From Escherichia phage vB_EcoM_phAPEC6, in the sequence record MK817115.1: 64,000 nucleotides of DNA; one strand, written 5' to 3'. The position numbers and the translations under genes are program-made. Every line of letters begins with the position of its first letter. Position 1 is the stretch's first letter. Shown one piece after another: positions 5,525-63,274 of the stretch. Under the pieces are notes generated by a model that was not told the DNA's origin, made no database searches, and saw only the letters and a program-made list of their open reading frames with translations.

Positions 5525-6454
5525 TTATACAGCCATAGGTGCTTTAATTGTTGGCATTGGGTTGTAATTCACTAATTTAAAAGAATCCATAGTGAAATCT
5601 TCAATATTAGTAATTGTAGGATCAAGCCACAATTCAGGTAATTCACGAGGTTTTCGCTGTAGTTGTTCTTTTACTTGTTCAACGTGGTTTTTATAAATGT
5701 GACAATCACCACCATTCCAAATAAATTCACCAACATCTAAACCAGTAATTTGTGCAATCATATGAGTTAGTAGTGAGTAACTACTGATATTAAATGGAAC
5801 TCCTAAAAATAGATCAGCGGAGCGTTGATGCAGAATACAGCTTAGTTTTCCTTGCACTACACAAAATTGCACAAAGCTATGACAAGGTGGTAACGTCATA
5901 TCATCAAGCTCACCAACGTTCCATGCACTTAGAATGTGGCGACGGCCATATGGATCGGACTTTATACCTTTGATTAGTTCTTGTAATTGGTCAGTTGTAC
6001 GTTTCATAACAACACCATGTGAACCAGTATAATCGATAACTTTGTATCCTTTATCTTTTAATTCTTGAATTTCTTCAGTACTGGAACTAAATTTATAATC
6101 TTCCCATTCACGCCATTGCTTACCATACACTGGACCTAACTCACCATCAGTATAACCAAGAGCAACGCCTTGATTTAGGTAATTATCTGTCCAAATAGTT
6201 TTCTTTTCTGTATCACGAGTTCCATGCAAAATTTCACAAAGGCGACGCTCATCATGGGAACCTTCAATAAACCATAGTAATTCTGAAGTCATTGCTTTCC
6301 AAGCTAGACGTTTTGTCGTCACTGCTGGGAAACCATCTTTAAGGTCAAAACGCATTTGTTGACCGATAAGTTTGATTGTTCCAACACCAGTACGGTCAAC
6401 GCTTTCTACGCCTTCATCTAGAATTTTTTGATATAGTTCTTGTAGTTGTTTCAT
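5525..6454 (-). CDS. thyA: Thymidylate synthase (ThyA/Td family)
   Basis: N-terminus DRTGVGTIKLIGQQMRFDL...GFPAVTTKRLAW and C-terminal MPTIKAPMAV closely parallel T4 Td and bacterial ThyA. Confidence 0.9.
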   Translation of the reverse strand: MKQLQELYQKILDEGVESVDRTGVGTIKLIGQQMRFDLKDGFPAVTTKRLAWKAMTSELLWFIEGSHDERRLCEILHGTRDTEKKTIWTDNYLNQGVALGYTDGELGPVYGKQWREWEDYKFSSSTEEIQELKDKGYKVIDYTGSHGVVMKRTTDQLQELIKGIKSDPYGRRHILSAWNVGELDDMTLPPCHSFVQFCVVQGKLSCILHQRSADLFLGVPFNISSYSLLTHMIAQITGLDVGEFIWNGGDCHIYKNHVEQVKEQLQRKPRELPELWLDPTITNIEDFTMDSFKLVNYNPMPTIKAPMAV

Positions 6455-7047
6455 TATTCTTCCTTGAAAAATGTAATAAAATGTTCCATATGTTTTTCGG
6501 TGGCATTGCGTGAACCAATACCAGTCCAGTTACCATGTGGTGCTGGAACGACGAATGTTTGTGTGAACTCTTTCAGTACTGTATCGAAATAAAATACTGA
6601 ACGTGAATTCATATCATAACAATAAATTTCAGGATTTTCAACTGAATCCATATACATCTGTACTGCCCATGCAGTACCACCACTTACCTTAGTTGGTGAT
6701 GTGATATTTGCAATACAATATATTCTTTCTGTATTAAGTATCTGATAACTATTCCTTGCAAGTAAGTTGTAAACATAAGAACCAGGCTTTGGTACTTTTC
6801 GCTGCAACGAGTAACATGCAATGTTTAGTTGATTTAATATAGAAATATCAGATAGAATATTGGATGGTATTTCTAATATAGTACTTTCATCTACACTATG
6901 CTCATGACCTTTGAATGAAAAATTAATAACTTCAAATCCATTATTTTTTGCATAGATAGAAAAAAGGCGGTCAGCACCTGCTGCCCCGCCACTAAAACAT
7001 ACATTAGATAAACCTTTAATTGCTTCATCTAATTCATTCTTTTTCAT
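6454..7047 (-). CDS. Rossmann-like protein with SGGAAGAD motif (SLOG/DprA/YpsA-like superfamily candidate), translationally coupled to thyA
   Basis: Motif CFSGGAAGADRLFS near N-terminus; 1-nt stop/start overlap with thyA. Confidence 0.3.
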   Translation of the reverse strand: MKKNELDEAIKGLSNVCFSGGAAGADRLFSIYAKNNGFEVINFSFKGHEHSVDESTILEIPSNILSDISILNQLNIACYSLQRKVPKPGSYVYNLLARNSYQILNTERIYCIANITSPTKVSGGTAWAVQMYMDSVENPEIYCYDMNSRSVFYFDTVLKEFTQTFVVPAPHGNWTGIGSRNATEKHMEHFITFFKEE

Positions 7048-7050
7048 ATT

Positions 7051-7707
7051 TTATTTTGCTTTACGTTCTGCAAATAGTTGTTTTACTTTCTCAATAGCTT
7101 TAGTCTGTGAAATACCTTCTGGAATTTCTAGATAAATTGTTTTACTATCTTTCGGTTGTTCAACAACTTGTGTTTGCGGACGCAAGCTTGGCTCTAAATT
7201 GTATGCACGTTCATAATGTTCTTTAGCCAGTTGTTCATATTTTTGTGCATCAGAGAGAAGTTTTTCTACAATAGTAGCTTCTTCTACTTTAGTGTCTGCT
7301 TCTTGTGGATTGAATGGGTTAAAGTCTTTTACTTTACCATCTTCTTGTACTTTCGCTTGATTTTCATCTAATGCTTTGTTTAGAACATCAAGAGAAATTT
7401 TATTATTACCACCAGTGTGCATATCAATGTCACAAGTACGAACGCGACGTAGATGTTGCATGTTGTGTAGAACATCTAGCATTTTGCGTCCATCGAGATA
7501 ACCAATTTTATGCATTACTTCCCACAAATCAATATTAGATTGACCATGACCCATAACAATATCAGTTACTGCGTGAACATATGCTTCTGGTAGTGAATCA
7601 CGATAAACGATAAGGCAGTGTTCAGGATCATCTGGTAGTGAACGCCAAACAACAAAAACACGAGAACCTGTATTACGCATTACACCAACATGACGAATAG
7701 CTGCCAT
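7051..7707 (-). CDS. Hypothetical protein
   Basis: 218-aa ORF in co-directional array. Confidence 0.5.
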   Translation of the reverse strand: MAAIRHVGVMRNTGSRVFVVWRSLPDDPEHCLIVYRDSLPEAYVHAVTDIVMGHGQSNIDLWEVMHKIGYLDGRKMLDVLHNMQHLRRVRTCDIDMHTGGNNKISLDVLNKALDENQAKVQEDGKVKDFNPFNPQEADTKVEEATIVEKLLSDAQKYEQLAKEHYERAYNLEPSLRPQTQVVEQPKDSKTIYLEIPEGISQTKAIEKVKQLFAERKAK

Positions 7708-7709
7708 AA

Positions 7710-7970
7710 TTATTCTCCTTTATCTTCTTGAGTTTCACTATCTTGTGATTCAGCTTCTTCTTTAGCTGCATCTTCTTGTGCTTTAATATCTTCAAGAGCT
7801 ACATTTGCAAAAGAAACAAATTTAGATACAACTGGAGCAACCTCAACAAGTTCTTCAACTTTAAAGGTGTTTCGTGCAACAGCAGCTTCCATGATTTTTG
7901 CAGCATTGATTAGGTCTAGAAGGGTTAGTTGAATTTGATTATTTTCTTGTTCCATTTTAATACTCTCCAT
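7710..7970 (-). CDS. Hypothetical acidic protein
   Basis: 86-aa ORF, acidic C-terminus. Confidence 0.4.
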   Translation of the reverse strand: MESIKMEQENNQIQLTLLDLINAAKIMEAAVARNTFKVEELVEVAPVVSKFVSFANVALEDIKAQEDAAKEEAESQDSETQEDKGE

Positions 7971-8019
7971 GTATATTGGTACATTAACTATTATATCATA
8001 TTTTTATAAGTTGTCCCAC

Positions 8020-8053
8020 TTATAAAAGAAGAGAACGGAAAATTCCGTTCTCT
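8020..8053 (-). terminator. Intrinsic terminator after VWA gene
   Basis: 9-bp stem AGAGAACGG / CCGTTCTCT with U-rich tail on minus strand. Confidence 0.55.
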
Positions 8054-8064
8054 TTATTTAGTAC

Positions 8065-9489
8065 TTAACTACGTTGACGCTTTTTATCAGCTTCATATTC
8101 GTAGTGTACAGTCTCACCAAATGGTGCAACTTTATTTGGGTTACTGTGAATCACGAACAGTGTTTTACAGTAGTTTGGATCACCCCATGACTGCCACGGT
8201 TCACCATCAGTAAACATTACAAGCTGTTTAGGCTTGTAGTTGTCGTTCTTCATATGAACCCATACTGCTTCAAAGTCAGTACCACCACCACCTTTTACTG
8301 GATATTCCAGAATCTTACGTTCTTCGCCAGTTTTGTAATCCTTTACAGTATAAACTTCAGTATCAAAAGTCATGATACGAATCTTAAACTGTTTGAATTG
8401 TTTAGTGATGCCAAGAACTTCACTAATGAAATCACGAAGCATATCTTCAGAAATAGACCCAGAAGCATCTAGTGCAATCGCAATATCAATATCATCATCT
8501 GGTTTCATCCCTGGGTAAATTGGATTACCATAGAATGAACCATTAGAACCAAAACCAGCACCCCATGAACGACGAGAAGGACTTTGATACGTTGCATCAG
8601 ACTTCAACCAACTACGAAGTGTACGTTGAAGTTTTGAACGCCAGTCAATCTTTGGTTCTTTAAAGTTGTTAATCATACGAGCGATTTCTGCTGGTGTACC
8701 ACCTGCACGTGCAGCATTCATCATTGCTGTTTTGAAATCATCCATATAATCACGTTTTTGCTGTTCACTTGAACCACCTTCTTGACCTTCTTGTGGAACG
8801 TCATGCTGGTCAATGGTAGTACCTTTTGGTTTACCCTTACCATCTTTAATATCACCAAAAGTACCGCGATTTTTACCTTCACCTTCACCGCCGCCACTTT
8901 GTGGTTGACCTTCACCTTCACCATCTTCTTTTTGTTCTTCTTCTTCAAGAAGAATGTAAATCTCTTCTGCGGTCATACCTTCATATTTTTTATCATACAA
9001 CCATGAACTTTGGATTTTTCCAATTTTCTCACGAACGATGATTTGGTTAATGGCATAATCCGCTGCACGGTTATAACGTTGTGGATCACGCATACCACGA
9101 CGAAGGAAGTGATCGTAAGCACAGTGTAGAATTTCATGACAAATTACAGCAATAAGGTTTTCATCAGTCAAACCTTCAGTCATTTCTTTTAATTGTTCGT
9201 CTGTAACTTCAGGATGCTTTTCACGAATAGCTTCTTCATATTCTTTCTTTTTAGATGGGTCTTGAATACCCATTACAAATTCTACGTTGTAGAATAGATG
9301 TTTACCATCAACTGCTAGAGTACGACACCATGTATTATTAGGAACTGGACGTAAACGTGAAGCGAGTACACCAAAGAATGGTGCAGTTAACATCAAAGAT
9401 GTACGAGCCAGAACCAGACGATCTTGACATTCTTTCTGGAGTGCCGGAGATACTTCATTGAATCTGGAAGTAGATTTGTTATCTGACAT
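8065..9489 (-). CDS. VWA domain protein with N-terminal HExxH metallopeptidase-like motif
   Basis: HEILHCAYDH (HExxH) in N-terminal half; MIDAS-like DASGS in C-terminal half; low-complexity G/E-rich linker. Confidence 0.7.
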   Translation of the reverse strand: MSDNKSTSRFNEVSPALQKECQDRLVLARTSLMLTAPFFGVLASRLRPVPNNTWCRTLAVDGKHLFYNVEFVMGIQDPSKKKEYEEAIREKHPEVTDEQLKEMTEGLTDENLIAVICHEILHCAYDHFLRRGMRDPQRYNRAADYAINQIIVREKIGKIQSSWLYDKKYEGMTAEEIYILLEEEEQKEDGEGEGQPQSGGGEGEGKNRGTFGDIKDGKGKPKGTTIDQHDVPQEGQEGGSSEQQKRDYMDDFKTAMMNAARAGGTPAEIARMINNFKEPKIDWRSKLQRTLRSWLKSDATYQSPSRRSWGAGFGSNGSFYGNPIYPGMKPDDDIDIAIALDASGSISEDMLRDFISEVLGITKQFKQFKIRIMTFDTEVYTVKDYKTGEERKILEYPVKGGGGTDFEAVWVHMKNDNYKPKQLVMFTDGEPWQSWGDPNYCKTLFVIHSNPNKVAPFGETVHYEYEADKKRQRS

Positions 9490-9520
9490 GTATATTTCCT
9501 CGTTTAGTTAAGATAAAAGA

Positions 9521-9552
9521 AGGATACCATTAGGCATCCTTCTTGTCAACAA
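9521..9552 (-). terminator. Hairpin with U-tract between MoxR and VWA genes (terminator or attenuator)
   Basis: GAAGGATGCC-UAAU-GGUAUCCUUC followed by UUUUAUC on minus strand. Confidence 0.45.
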
Positions 9553-9563
9553 CTCTTTGTTAA

Positions 9564-10889
9564 TTAGCCAAGAGAGCGTGCTTTACGTACAAGTTCAGAG
9601 TACTTAGCGATGAAATCTTTAAACGCTGGTACATCTTTAATGGAAATCGCAACCTTATGAAGCGTGATGGTACGAATTGCCAGTACTGCCAGTTCTGCTT
9701 GAGTTGCAGAGAAGTTATGGTCTAGGAAGGTGATGAAGTTGTTACACAGTTTACCCCATTCTTCCACTGGTAGACGTTGTTCTTGCTTCTCATTGAACAG
9801 GTCGATAATTTTATAAACCAAGTTCAGAGTGATAAAGTAGTTCGCAGAAATATCCAGCGTTGCGTCGATTTCTTTGATTTCACCAGACAGAATAGACATA
9901 GTATCTGGTAGTTTAGCAACGTTCTCAACGTACTCAATGTATTCAGTTGCAACACCTTCACCAACACGACCAGCAATCATTGCACGGAACACTTCTTTAT
10001 CAATTGTCTTAGTTTTCTTGAGATCTTCGTAGCGTGCTACTGCTTCCCATGAACGTGGAGAAGTACCACCACTGTGAGAAGGATCTTGTGGACTAAGTGT
10101 GTTAAAGTACTTAGAACCAGTGTTGTTGATGAACGCAACAGTTGCTGGGTTCAAACGTTTTGCAATCGCATAATCGTTAATCCAATCTTGATGATAAGGA
10201 ATCATCTCAATGTGAGTCATACGGTCACGCAGTGGTGTAGCAAGAGAGAAAGTTACACCGCCATCAGTTTCACGGTTACCTGCTGCAAGAATCAGTGCAG
10301 TCTTAGGTAGCTTCATCTCACCAACACAACGGTCGAGGATTAGCTGATAAGACGCTGCCTGAACAATAGGCATTGCAGAGTTAATTTCGTCAAACAGAAT
10401 AACACCTTTCCAATCTTCGGACAATTTCAGAACTTTAGGTGCAGCCCATACTACCGCAGTTTCAGCTACATAATCTTTTGCTTCGGCAAGCTCAGATTCT
10501 TTCAGAAGAGAACCGTCAGTTTTACGGAAAAGCTTCTCTGGTACTGGAATACCGCGAAGGTCACTTGGTTCGATTTGAGACAAACGGAAATCGATAAAGT
10601 TAGTATCTTGGTCGATTAGTTTTGCTTCAAATGCAGCCAGTTCACGGCGTAGCTGATCAGCATTTTCAGGGTCAGCTTCGATTTGTTGTTTCATGAACTC
10701 GATTTTAGCTACGTTATCTTTACGCAGTGGGTAATTTTCATCAGCGTATTGACGAGCGATTGCAGACTTACCGATACCTGGGCTACCCCAAATCATCAGG
10801 CTATCTTGAATCATGTCAGCTAGTGCCATTGCTTCTTTAGCTTTCTTTGGAGTCAGTTTAACGTTCAGGATATCGTTTTGAGTAGTCAT
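9564..10889 (-). CDS. MoxR-like AAA+ ATPase
   Basis: Walker A GSPGIGKS; Walker B ILFDEIN; adjacent to VWA partner as in MoxR/VWA pairs. Confidence 0.75.
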   Translation of the reverse strand: MTTQNDILNVKLTPKKAKEAMALADMIQDSLMIWGSPGIGKSAIARQYADENYPLRKDNVAKIEFMKQQIEADPENADQLRRELAAFEAKLIDQDTNFIDFRLSQIEPSDLRGIPVPEKLFRKTDGSLLKESELAEAKDYVAETAVVWAAPKVLKLSEDWKGVILFDEINSAMPIVQAASYQLILDRCVGEMKLPKTALILAAGNRETDGGVTFSLATPLRDRMTHIEMIPYHQDWINDYAIAKRLNPATVAFINNTGSKYFNTLSPQDPSHSGGTSPRSWEAVARYEDLKKTKTIDKEVFRAMIAGRVGEGVATEYIEYVENVAKLPDTMSILSGEIKEIDATLDISANYFITLNLVYKIIDLFNEKQEQRLPVEEWGKLCNNFITFLDHNFSATQAELAVLAIRTITLHKVAISIKDVPAFKDFIAKYSELVRKARSLG

Positions 10890-10957
10890 GTATATATTTC
10901 CTTTTGTTGGATAAAATCGTTTAAGTTTCTATTATAGCCAATCCGTGGGCAAAAGTA

Positions 10958-10996
10958 AAGGAACTGTGTTAAAATAATTTAACTTATCAGTTCCTT
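10958..10996 (-). promoter_or_regulatory. Hairpin in long 5' leader upstream of MoxR gene
   Basis: 9-bp stem AAGGAACTG / CAGTTCCTT with 21-nt loop, U-rich 3' flank on minus strand. Confidence 0.3.
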
Positions 10997-11058
10997 TGTT
11001 ACTTCATGAATCATCCGTGTGTTTAAAAGGTAAATCTCTTTGCTGTCTTGATGTGAAC

Positions 11059-11086
11059 ATTATATCACATCGTTTCAACTTGTCAA
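11059..11086 (-). promoter_or_regulatory. Sigma70-type early promoter P1: TTGACA, 16-nt spacer, TGaTATAAT
   Basis: Read directly on minus strand: TTGACAagttgaaacgatgTGaTATAAT; consensus hexamers plus extended -10 TG. Confidence 0.6.
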
Positions 11087-11152
11087 TCACTTTTTTTCTT
11101 TTTTTTTCAAACTCACATCTTGTGTCGCTTGAAAACTTTATGTCTGATGCTT

Positions 11153-11180
11153 ATTGTATCACATCATTCTATCTTGTCAA
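11153..11180 (-). promoter_or_regulatory. Sigma70-type early promoter P2: TTGACA, 16-nt spacer, TGaTACAAT
   Basis: Minus strand TTGACAagatagaatgatgTGaTACAAT; near-identical architecture to P1, about 95 bp apart. Confidence 0.55.
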
Positions 11181-11204
11181 CATTTATTTTTAATTCATTT
11201 TTTC

Positions 11205-11585
11205 TTACATATGAATAGAAAATAACTGTTTAAAATCGTCACAACACAATGTTAATTCAGTTATTATCATTGCATCTGTCAGATATATGTACTGACCTTC
11301 AACATAATAAGGTGAAGTACATATTCTGTCAAGTGATGTAAACATTATAGAACTTTTAAATTCTCTTTGCAAGGGGATTTTTGTAAATTCATAAAGATTA
11401 TTTTCTTTACAAATTCCATACCCAAACTTGCTAAGACGTAAACCACCGCCAGTTCTGAAATTTTCAAAAATTGACATCAGAAGCATACGGTCTGTTATTT
11501 CTGAATCTGATTCATGTACTTCCCTAACTTTGGAAAGTACATTATTTTGATATTCAGTACTGTTATGTGATGGTTCTGGAAACAT
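11205..11585 (-). CDS. Hypothetical protein
   Basis: 126-aa ORF. Confidence 0.4.
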   Translation of the reverse strand: MFPEPSHNSTEYQNNVLSKVREVHESDSEITDRMLLMSIFENFRTGGGLRLSKFGYGICKENNLYEFTKIPLQREFKSSIMFTSLDRICTSPYYVEGQYIYLTDAMIITELTLCCDDFKQLFSIHM

Positions 11586-26930: not shown

Positions 26931-27038
26931 GATAAAATATTATACCACAACTATAACGCATATCTTATCTCTTTGTCATCAATCGATGTTCAGATACTAA
27001 TAATTATATCAGTTATTGGTTTTTTGTCCCACTATTTT

Positions 27039-37441: not shown

Positions 37442-38131
37442 TCACTTCGTTCTCTCGTAACTCAAGAAGTCACTGCGTTTACTTCGTAAACTAGTTCCTT
37501 CTGAAAATGATAATGTACTTTAAAAACTTGACGGGATTTGTTGAGGACTATTACATCCCCCCGCAGGGGAATGAAGGTAATAAAAAAGAGACAATTAAGT
37601 CTCTCTTGACGATGATGGCATCGGATATTATCGAATTGCGAATTTCTCAAATTTTGGACGGATCTTTCTTGTACCAAAATTTAGAGAGCGAAAGCGGGTT
37701 GCTCGGTTTCTCTCTATCGCAGTCATATGCAACGGTCGCTGGTCTTTTCATCAACAGCACTCAGTACTAACTCTATTCGATCAAAGTAGTACTTGTTCTC
37801 AAATTTTGGACGCAACTTTCTTGTAAAAATTGCGTCCGCTATCCTTGAACTCCCTTAGCAAATCTGGTAAGGTGCGAACCTTATACATCTATCTAGGAAC
37901 TCTCTGTATGCTTATCGGAGTTCTTTATACAGCCGTGTCGCCGTGATTCGTGGTCTTACATCGTGTTTGTTTGAATGCCAGTACTCTAACAGGTTTCTTC
38001 TGCTGTTCGCTACAACGGTAAAGCTCATCTATCCTTTACATTTTCAAGAGAAGTAGGTTCTCAGTGTCCATTTTTCAATGTCCGTTGTCATTTTCTATAT
38101 ACATTATATCATTGGAACATATAATGTCCCA
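37442..38131 (-). ncRNA. Candidate structured non-coding RNA locus (ORF-poor, GC-enriched, repeated hairpin modules)
   Basis: About 690 bp without a credible ORF in an otherwise gap-free gene array; direct repeat TTCTCAAATTTTGGACG...CTTTCTTGTA at 37644-37673 and 37796-37825, each forming a hairpin; additional hairpins; locally elevated GC. Confidence 0.4.
38103..38130 (-). promoter_or_regulatory. Weak sigma70-like promoter candidate facing into the non-coding island
   Basis: Minus strand GGGACA, 16 nt, TGaTATAAT; -35 matches 4 of 6. Confidence 0.25.
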
Positions 38132-53654: not shown

Positions 53655-53662
53655 TATTTATA
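53655..53662 (-). promoter_or_regulatory. T4-type late promoter-like TATAAATA box upstream of fibre paralog B
   Basis: Exact TATAAATA on minus strand about 34 nt upstream of ATG. Confidence 0.35.
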
Positions 53663-63206: not shown

Positions 63207-63274
63207 TTTATATCTCCTTCTGTATTATGATAACAACATTATATCATGTATGGGACATTATGTCCCATACAATA

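Follow-up and report, generated by a model that had tools for sequence, protein, structure and literature searches.

The window analysed here is a 64,000-nucleotide stretch of Escherichia phage vB_EcoM_phAPEC6 (MK817115.1), and at 8065-11190 it carries a two-gene unit for an AAA+ ATPase of the MoxR clade (gp563) and a VWA protein with an N-terminal putative metallopeptidase domain (gp564). The reading we prefer, to which we give an even chance, is that the two proteins form a remodelling and protease machine that acts before the late phase of infection on a target outside the virion. Region 8000-11250 shares 100% identity with Escherichia phage 121Q (KM507819, 348.5 kb), a Rak2-like jumbo phage of the genus Asteriusvirus, and 99% with about 20 further coliphage and Salmonella phage records. 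The plus strand of the window is the minus strand of the 121Q record, in which gene 563 is labelled 'ATPase' and gene 564 'Zn-dependent hydrolase' (elsewhere 'HNH endonuclease'). An earlier reading of the letters alone (the original prediction) had placed both open reading frames (ORFs), promoter-like sites and hairpins in this interval, and all of them are there, on the minus strand. The two genes and their main motifs are as follows.

9564..10889, minus strand: gp563, MoxR-clade AAA+ ATPase, 441 amino acids (aa), assigned from the ORF, its motifs and the profiles of its relatives.
10764-10787, minus strand: Walker A motif of gp563, aa 35-42.
8065..9489, minus strand: gp564, VWA-metallopeptidase (putative protease), 474 aa, assigned from the ORF, Pfam and an alignment.
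9124-9138, minus strand: HExxH motif of gp564 (HEILH), aa 118-122.
About 8800-8935, minus strand: disordered Gly/Glu-rich linker of gp564, about aa 185-240.
8455-8469, minus strand: intact MIDAS motif (DASGS) in the C-terminal VWA domain of gp564.

The domain content of gp564 is the clearer of the two. In Pfam, it matches DUF2201_N, a 'putative metallopeptidase domain' (E = 2.7e-34, 119.5 bits against a cut-off of 23.2), and DUF2201, a 'VWA-like domain' (E = 7e-21). The plain VWA model matches weakly. The original prediction had described a VWA partner with an N-terminal HExxH and had named this family beforehand, and the profile search returned exactly that. In an alignment of 32 homologues with identities down to 42%, H118, E119 and H122 are invariant (32/32), as are the MIDAS residues D341, S343, S345, T404 and D428. 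The case for a peptidase had been staked on conservation of the HExxH motif among homologues, and the motif is kept in every one. A database search gave 2929 significant relatives among the candidates scored; the best 120 of these all contain DUF2201_N, and all except one truncated entry contain DUF2201. An AlphaFold model (predicted local distance difference test score, pLDDT, 77) has a helical N-terminal domain, a disordered linker and a C-terminal alpha/beta domain. The C-terminal half has a VWA fold, and all fold-search matches fall on it. Candidates for a third zinc ligand are H127 (at least 90% conserved), D144 and D227/H229. gp564 is best treated as a putative protease, which the ATPase would activate. 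The linker is hypervariable apart from a D-x-H motif (D227, H229) that is invariant in 32/32 homologues. It may bind zinc, act as a self-inhibitory plug or be the place where the protein cuts itself.

Besides Walker A, gp563 has a Walker B motif (D167, E168), sensor-1 N205, R223 and an SPR motif at P278 and R279. Across the 32 sequences of an alignment of gp563 relatives, G35, K41, S42, D167, E168, N205, R223, P278 and R279 are invariant. Judged by position, R223 is probably the arginine finger and the SPR motif sensor 2. The placement of gp563 within the AAA+ proteins is indirect. Its own Pfam matches are weak: AAA, a generic model, is at threshold (E = 3.9e-4) and AAA_3 is at E = 7e-3. The curated thresholds of the MoxR-clade models are missed (AAA_3 scores 16.7 bits against a cut-off of 27, and AAA_5 is unlisted), and direct searches of gp563 and of gp564 against PDB sequences and NCBIfam gave nothing significant. 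Relatives of gp563 of about 360 aa, at 30-37% identity, match AAA_5 in 13/32 cases (best 3.2e-11), AAA_3 in 13/32 and bpMoxR in 4/32. A profile made from these short relatives matches midasin AAA domains (E = 5e-25; best single domain 4.9e-7) and a CbbQ/NirQ/NorQ protein (E = 5.7e-5). By this transitive evidence, via the relatives, we assign gp563 to the MoxR/midasin/CbbQ (AAA_5/AAA_3) clade. The earlier description as a MoxR AAA+ ATPase is upheld by the profiles of the relatives and by genomic coupling to the VWA gene, but the protein's own Pfam score stays under the cut-off.

Compared to the 360-aa relatives, gp563 carries two insertions, at about aa 53-97 (about 45 residues) and about aa 116-145 (about 30 residues). 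The other jumbo-phage ATPases share both, again without counterpart in the short relatives. The first insertion is helical and follows the Walker A helix. The second is a lengthened beta-hairpin after a DLRGIP motif, where the short relatives have a short hairpin. Both lie within nt 10460-10740, and the second may, judging by its position, line the central pore.

The two genes are paired across hundreds of phages. By tblastn, the VWA-peptidase is encoded in 617 phage records, which include Rak2-like and PA5oct-like jumbo phages, rV5-like Vequintavirinae, N4-like Schitoviridae, Bacillus phage G and others. We examined gene order in 80 viral contigs encoding it. The ATPase gene is upstream on the same strand in 75/80 and directly adjacent in 65; many of these loci come from one marine clade, so that they are not independent and the counts give a trend, not a probability. 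The same order was seen in 30 genome-collection matches, mostly viral-looking metagenome-bin contigs and a few Rhizobiales. Departures from it exist. In the N4-like phage G7C an inserted HNH gene alone splits the two genes, and in an rV5-like phage they are 3.6 kb apart on opposite strands.

Among the members of this set are gp24 (ATPase) and gp25 (vWFA) of phage N4 in the Schitoviridae, which belong to the same two families and stand in the same order as the 121Q pair. G7C gp24 matches our ATPase profile at E = 7e-52 and G7C gp25 our VWA profile at E = 7e-42, and RaK2 annotates its own copies 'N4 gp24-like' and 'gp25-like'. On these similarities, we regard gp563 and gp564 as the 121Q counterparts of N4 gp24 and gp25. 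N4-like phages have 14 core genes, gp24 and gp25 among them, and both are transcribed in the middle phase (PMC4193335). Naming in the databases is uneven. Other records already call members of the pair 'MoxR ATPase', 'putative metallopeptidase' or 'VWA domain-containing protein'. Many records mislabel the VWA-peptidase 'HNH endonuclease' (also the label of PHROG 1314), 'anti-sigma factor' or 'T4 gp25-like'. These three labels are wrong, and the last is a mix-up with N4 gp25.

Motifs that may control the expression of the pair lie upstream of, between and behind the two genes. These are the following.

11153..11180, minus strand: P1, sigma-70-type promoter-like site (TTGACA, 16-nt spacer, TGa TACAAT), with an A/T-rich UP-like tract upstream.
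11059..11086, minus strand: P2, sigma-70-type promoter-like site (TTGACA, 16-nt spacer, TGa TATAAT; 12/12), with an A-tract upstream.
11059-11107 and 11153-11201, minus strand: direct repeat holding P2 and P1, two 49-nt copies, 71% identical and 94 nt apart.
10951..10997, minus strand: leader hairpin (10997-10957), AAAGGAACUG..GUUAAA-UUAU-UUUAAC..CAGUUCCUUU, then ACUUUUG; terminator- or attenuator-like.
10931..10959, minus strand: P3, weaker promoter-like site (TTTACT-17-TATAAT; 10/12), directly after the leader hairpin.
9517..9549, minus strand: intergenic element, TTGACA, then a 12-bp hairpin (9544..9517), AAGAAGGAUGCC-UAAU-GGUAUCCUUCUU, with a UUAUCUU tail.
8029..8054, minus strand: intrinsic-terminator-like hairpin closing the two-gene unit (-16.8 kcal/mol), found in a terminator scan and a terminator in the annotation of phage G17.

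The pattern TTGACA-N13-TGnTAnnAT occurs at two sites only in the 64 kb, P1 and P2, where 0.05 are expected; none of 100 shuffles contained at least two. No other site in the window combines TGn with 11 or more of 12 matches. They sit in the 49-nt direct repeat, and the twin promoters are therefore a local tandem duplication. An alignment of eight relatives, six from Asteriusvirus plus the Klebsiella phages RaK2 and Muenster, shows P1 in all of them. P2 is present in the Asteriusvirus relatives only and is absent from RaK2 and Muenster. Thus far the original prediction, of two nearly identical TTGACA/extended -10 promoters with 16-nt spacers, was right, and both sites are conserved in relatives and have A-rich tracts upstream. 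They are strong sigma-70-type motifs with an extended -10 and are predicted to be active in vivo.

As to timing, the RpoD-like promoters with UP-like elements of the related phage CBB cluster in its predicted early region, where a phage sigma factor is encoded as well; a second class of CBB promoters is marked by TGAAACG, and a third, ATAAATA, is found before structural genes (PMC5259590). The P2 spacer holds TGAAACG. We took a census of sigma-70-like sites in the first 100 kb of the 121Q record, which lies outside the window, and in the window. Their density is 5.8 per 10 kb at 50-100 kb of the 121Q record, a region of small ORFs with a sigma-factor gene that corresponds to the predicted early region of CBB, and nearly all are on the coding strand. 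This is 2.5 times the density of the first 50 kb and the window (2.2-2.4 per 10 kb). The T4-type late box TATAAATA is found once in the 64 kb, at 53655-53662 and not near the pair, where about 17 would be expected from base composition. It is so rare, despite the many structural genes, that late promoters here must look different. With host sigma-70-type promoters and this early-region motif density, pre-late expression of the pair by the host polymerase is plausible, and it would match the middle timing of the N4 homologues. The 'immediate-early' expression that had been suggested is plausible but unproven.

Other promoter-like motifs recur in this genome. A second one, (T)GGGACA, 13-14 nt, TGATATAAT, is found on the minus strand at 7990-8017, 27003-27030, 38103-38131 and 63238-63266. 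The first of these copies is right after the VWA-gene terminator and before gene 565, and the motif may represent a phage-specific promoter class. A near-identical strong promoter-like sequence, TTGACTAAATAGTTCAGTACTG(A)TATAAT, occurs three times among phage tRNA genes in the 121Q record (74187, 74666 and 75425, plus strand), outside the window. The spacer motif AGTACTGTATAAT recurs elsewhere in the presumed early region of 121Q.

The leader between the twin promoters and the ATPase gene was said to be long and structured. Its 163 nt from the P2 start to the ATG do fold better than shuffles in single-sequence folding, from which all hairpin energies here are taken (minimum free energy -28.1, z = -2.8), but the structure is mainly one conserved hairpin with a U-rich tail. 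The hairpin is 55-100 nt downstream of the P2 start (-15.2 kcal/mol, z = -4.9). The RaK2 counterpart has the same fold with a different sequence (-14.0), and in the near-identical phage G17 the hairpin is annotated as a terminator by ARNOLD. It was missed by our terminator scan of the window because its loop region is long. P3 is kept in 8/8 aligned relatives (its -10 is TATCAT in RaK2) and could drive the ATPase gene alone. A better description of the leader is a probable attenuator or weak terminator, followed by what may be a second start point. The original prediction had the twin promoters driving the pair. Promoter-like sites are indeed upstream, but a terminator-like hairpin and then P3 intervene, and the twin promoters may thus not simply drive the ATPase gene.

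These features suggest another use for P1 and P2, namely that they mainly make short non-coding RNAs (about 95 and 190 nt) terminated at the leader hairpin, with the ATPase served by P3 or by read-through. The position of the hairpin and its U-rich tail, the terminator call in G17 and the retention of P3 all fit this. The RNA from P1 to the hairpin folds at z = -4.3, and the stretch from P2 to the hairpin is conserved as DNA, while the tiny ORF within it is not. We nonetheless find this idea rather doubtful. Read-through is likely, as the hairpin is A/U-rich, of modest strength (-15 kcal/mol) and followed by an interrupted U-tract; RaK2 manages with one promoter, and no Rfam family was matched (a search of 7900-11400 gave chance-level matches only). 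The idea bears on regulation alone and is compatible with any function of the proteins. P1 and P2 may also do both, supplying the ATPase gene through read-through and releasing the short RNAs. The tiny ORF itself (MIHEVTKELIS) was rejected as a gene, as its frame is lost in A4 and RaK2 although the DNA is conserved. In the predicted leader fold, AUUUACCUUUU (11022-11032) pairs with the ribosome-binding region of the ATPase gene, AAAAGGAAAU (10896-10905), both on the minus strand. CCTTT within the former stretch and AAAAGGAAA within the latter are invariant in the eight relatives. By this pairing, the ribosome-binding site could be masked in P1 and P2 transcripts and not in those from P3.

A hairpin with a U-tract between the genes had also been claimed, together with a role in setting their stoichiometry. 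The hairpin is present. Its 12-bp stem (-18.6 kcal/mol, z = -5.5) and U-rich tail TTATCTTAAC pass the terminator scan, and TH47, A4 and RaK2 all keep it, with pairing preserved through base changes. A promoter-like site overlaps it, with TGgTATCCT in the 3' arm, 17 nt after TTGACA. We compared 57 ATPase-to-VWA gaps, typically of about 100 nt across the family, to 299 other same-strand gaps from the same contigs under one fixed rule set; here too, the dominance of one marine clade makes the counts a trend, not a probability. Terminator-like hairpins are found in 33/57 ATPase-to-VWA gaps and 17/299 controls, and TTGAC-type promoter-like sites in 47/57 and 116/299. Both together are present in 28/57 and 3/299, with the promoter after the terminator in 26 of the 28. 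The stems differ in sequence between contigs. In the solved MoxR/VWA machines, six ATPase subunits are combined with a single VWA protein (PMC9976466, PMC13036017). With this ratio and a hairpin that is conserved and terminator-like family-wide, the stoichiometry idea gains support, and it is reasonable that the intergenic hairpin helps set unequal expression of ATPase and VWA protein.

From these elements the following mechanism can be proposed, in which the hexamer, the docking mode, the proteolysis, the timing and the target are what we infer. The two genes would be a transcription unit of their own within a co-oriented block of structural genes. Host sigma-70 RNA polymerase would start at the duplicated strong promoter (P1, P2), the weak leader terminator and the intergenic hairpin would trim transcription to yield more ATPase than VWA-peptidase, and the third terminator would close the unit. 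gp563 would form a MoxR-type ring, most likely hexameric. The VWA domain of gp564 would dock on this ring, with the MIDAS site holding an acidic residue of the target protein. In the NorQ/NorD couple, a NorQ hexamer takes up a single NorD, whose VWA finger sits in the pore, a mode proposed as general for MoxR/VWA couples (PMC9976466, PMC13036017). ATP hydrolysis would then remodel the target or the gp564 linker, as unfolding or positioning work, and the N-terminal HExxH (zincin) domain would cut the target or gp564 itself. The target would not be tied to one type of virion; it may be a host protein or a non-structural phage complex rather than the 121Q particle.

Several observations count against this proposal. 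For the N-terminal domain of gp564, neither a third zinc ligand nor a zincin subfamily could be assigned from the alignment and fold searches. We found no solved relative of the peptidase domain; its profile against the PDB reaches a minigluzincin at E = 0.49 only. The leader hairpin may stop most P1 and P2 transcripts. The gene-order and gap counts come from 80 viral loci dominated by a single clade. The literature searched holds no expression, genetic or biochemical work on N4 gp24/gp25 or on phage MoxR/VWA pairs, and for the 121Q group we found no expression data on the pair, nor virion-proteome data besides the phAPEC6 list. Two further observations concern the virion. In Rak2-like phages the pair also abuts structural genes. 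Mass spectrometry of purified phAPEC6 virions lists an 'ATPase' of 49.52 kDa with 6 peptides (PMC7247149).

The last two observations belong to the most serious alternative, in which the pair folds or assembles a structural component and the zincin trims structural proteins during maturation. A role of this kind in virion assembly and proteolytic processing has been proposed by Iyer et al. (2021; PMC7824862) by analogy with the Acidianus two-tailed virus, whose p618/p892 couple drives tail development. In 121Q, the pair comes directly after the co-oriented genes 554-562, which are mostly annotated as structural (559-561 included; 562 is hypothetical). Genes 569-571, also structural, come later and point the other way. 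The marine clade has a tail-fibre-like gene (Mtd_N) 4-6 genes downstream. The phAPEC6 virion list also holds a 25.02-kDa protein, a thymidylate synthase of 35.51 kDa and a PhoH-like protein (PMC7247149). The masses 49.52, 25.02 and 35.51 kDa match those computed for gp563, gp566 and ThyA to 0.01 kDa, and homologues of all three were thus detected in purified virions. The presence of ThyA and a PhoH-like protein in that list makes carry-over possible, and the three proteins could be either carry-over or a hint of packaging. Against a structural role, the 54-kDa VWA-peptidase is absent from the list, phages whose particles are very unlike one another (N4-like podoviruses, rV5-like myoviruses and jumbo phages) have the pair in their core set, its N4 homologues are transcribed in the middle and not the late phase, and the 121Q promoters are of host sigma-70 type with no T4-type late box at the pair. 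Taken together, the very different particles, the middle timing in N4 and the metabolic genes nearby favour a target outside the virion. Virion assembly is possible, and we place it second to the remodelling and protease machine.

The metabolic genes and the other neighbours of the pair in the window are as follows.

11205..11585, minus strand: gp562, 126 aa, with no known domain, matched by the profile of a distant cluster (E = 1.8e-12).
7710-7970, minus strand: gp565, 86 aa, function unknown, which keeps its place downstream of the VWA gene in distant phages.
7051-7707, minus strand: gp566, 218 aa, function unknown, which likewise keeps its place there.
6454-7047: SLOG/DprA-like protein, between gp566 and ThyA.
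5525-6454: ThyA.

ThyA is near the pair in 121Q and its relatives, ThyX and dCTP deaminase are near it in G7C, and ThyX is near it in another contig (L016). The marine clade has DHFR, FolE and a 5'-3' exonuclease in the neighbourhood. The link of the pair to nucleotide-metabolism genes is a loose neighbourhood association. A thymidylate synthase, either ThyA or the unrelated ThyX, recurs a few genes from the pair in unrelated lineages (loci L016, L086 and L127), and dCTP deaminase or DHFR is near the pair in several of the lineages that have one.

Such neighbours would suit an enzyme activase or metal-insertion system like NorQ/NorD, CbbQ/CbbO and CobS/CobT. The pair would then mature or reactivate a phage or host metallo-enzyme, e.g., one of deoxynucleotide synthesis, and the HExxH would hold a metal or a substrate loop with no peptide cleavage. 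Most characterised MoxR/VWA couples do jobs of this kind (PMC13036017, PMC9976466), the closest solved ATPases by fold include NorQ and CbbQ, and the nucleotide and folate metabolism genes recur near the pair in separate lineages, with the unrelated ThyA and ThyX among them. However, the glutamate of the HExxH, which is the catalytic base of zincin peptidases, is invariant, Pfam puts the domain among putative metallopeptidases, and no candidate client enzyme is consistently adjacent. We consider an activase without proteolysis unlikely and rank it below virion assembly.

A function in defence or counter-defence is less probable still. In that case the pair would be akin to the vWA-MoxR conflict systems (Kaur et al., 2020), with the vWA-fused peptidase as effector. 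Peptidase domains, rarely metallopeptidases, are fused to the vWA component in such systems (PMC7159879), and the bpMoxR model is matched by the 4/32 ATPase relatives mentioned above. We found no significant PADLOC match, however (best E = 0.023 for the ATPase, none for the VWA protein), and the pair is core and syntenic in several phage families, which is not how a variable island gene behaves. A third, VMAP-like component was not noticed beside the pair, where the neighbours are small and without Pfam match and where no VMAP model was searched.

Three of the neighbours may be further parts of the ATPase/VWA module itself. A gp562-like protein is encoded just upstream of the ATPase gene in distant phage contigs, and downstream of the VWA gene a gp566-like protein is found in 67/80 loci and a gp565-like protein in 53/80. 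This synteny spans Rak2-like phages and distant marine contigs in which the VWA protein is 38% identical. gp562, gp565 and gp566 have no Pfam or PDB match, and genes like them were not found in N4-like or rV5-like phages. A more elaborate scheme would combine these observations. In it, a larger cassette (gp562-like, ATPase, VWA-peptidase, gp565-like and gp566-like) would act before the late phase to assemble, activate or dismantle a non-structural complex, e.g., the deoxynucleotide/thymidylate-synthesis machinery or a host complex. The intergenic terminator plus promoter would set a ratio of ATPase to adaptor of about 6:1, and the twin promoters would perhaps also release a small leader RNA. 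As a whole this scheme is improbable, and we offer it as speculation.

Much of the main finding has a precedent. Iyer et al. (2021) described computationally, in group 2.2 (T4-related) jumbo phages, a MoxR AAA+ ATPase with a vWA protein fused to an N-terminal metallopeptidase (PMC7824862). Theirs is the same thing as the 121Q pair, with examples from another phage, and the core of our finding is thus already published. They treat no promoters, terminators or synteny. What we add is modest: the leader terminator and P3, the duplication that made the twin promoters, the family-wide intergenic terminator and promoter, and three syntenic partners. These are useful leads and not surprising, and the pair itself will be no surprise to a specialist. 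Since the identity of the pair is published, the 121Q locus adds little as a discovery, and it does not make the question of the substrate newly testable. The pair is among the gene sets without assigned function that large lytic phages share most widely. The substrate, once found, would show what two core genes of many therapeutic and model phages do, and it would add a protease-coupled variant to the few MoxR/VWA machines that are understood.

The N4 pair is among the closest known systems. Its proteins are smaller, at about 350 aa for the ATPase (441 in 121Q) and about 390 aa for the VWA protein (474 in 121Q); the 121Q ATPase has the two insertions and the 121Q VWA protein the long Gly/Glu-rich linker. 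N4 transcribes gp24 and gp25 as middle genes with its own RNA polymerase II, whereas the 121Q pair has host-type promoters. The Acidianus two-tailed virus p618 (MoxR) and p892 (VWA) are, by description, a virus-encoded couple like that of 121Q (PMC7824862, PMC7159879). They belong to an archaeal virus, however, lack a peptidase domain and are tied to extracellular tail growth. The same Pfam architecture as in gp564 is found in the bacterial DUF2201_N plus DUF2201 'predicted metal-dependent peptidase' beside a MoxR-like ATPase, e.g., Synechocystis Sll7028/Sll7029. We take this bacterial type to be COG3864. UniRef names phage members 'Sll7028 protein' and 'Sll7029 protein', and the cellular DUF2201 members are as uncharacterised as those of phages. 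Among the genome-contig matches with the phage-type motifs, most look viral and a few are from Rhizobiales. The couples NorQ/NorD and CbbQ/CbbO each act on a defined enzyme, nitric oxide reductase and Rubisco, respectively (the title of PDB 6l1q calls CbbQ/CbbO a Rubisco activase). NorD and CbbO differ from gp564 in having no peptidase domain, and the similarity of NorQ and CbbQ to the 121Q ATPase is visible solely via the profiles of its relatives. Like gp563 and gp564 they are encoded by adjacent genes, and the solved machines have a ratio of 6:1, which fits unequal expression of the two genes.

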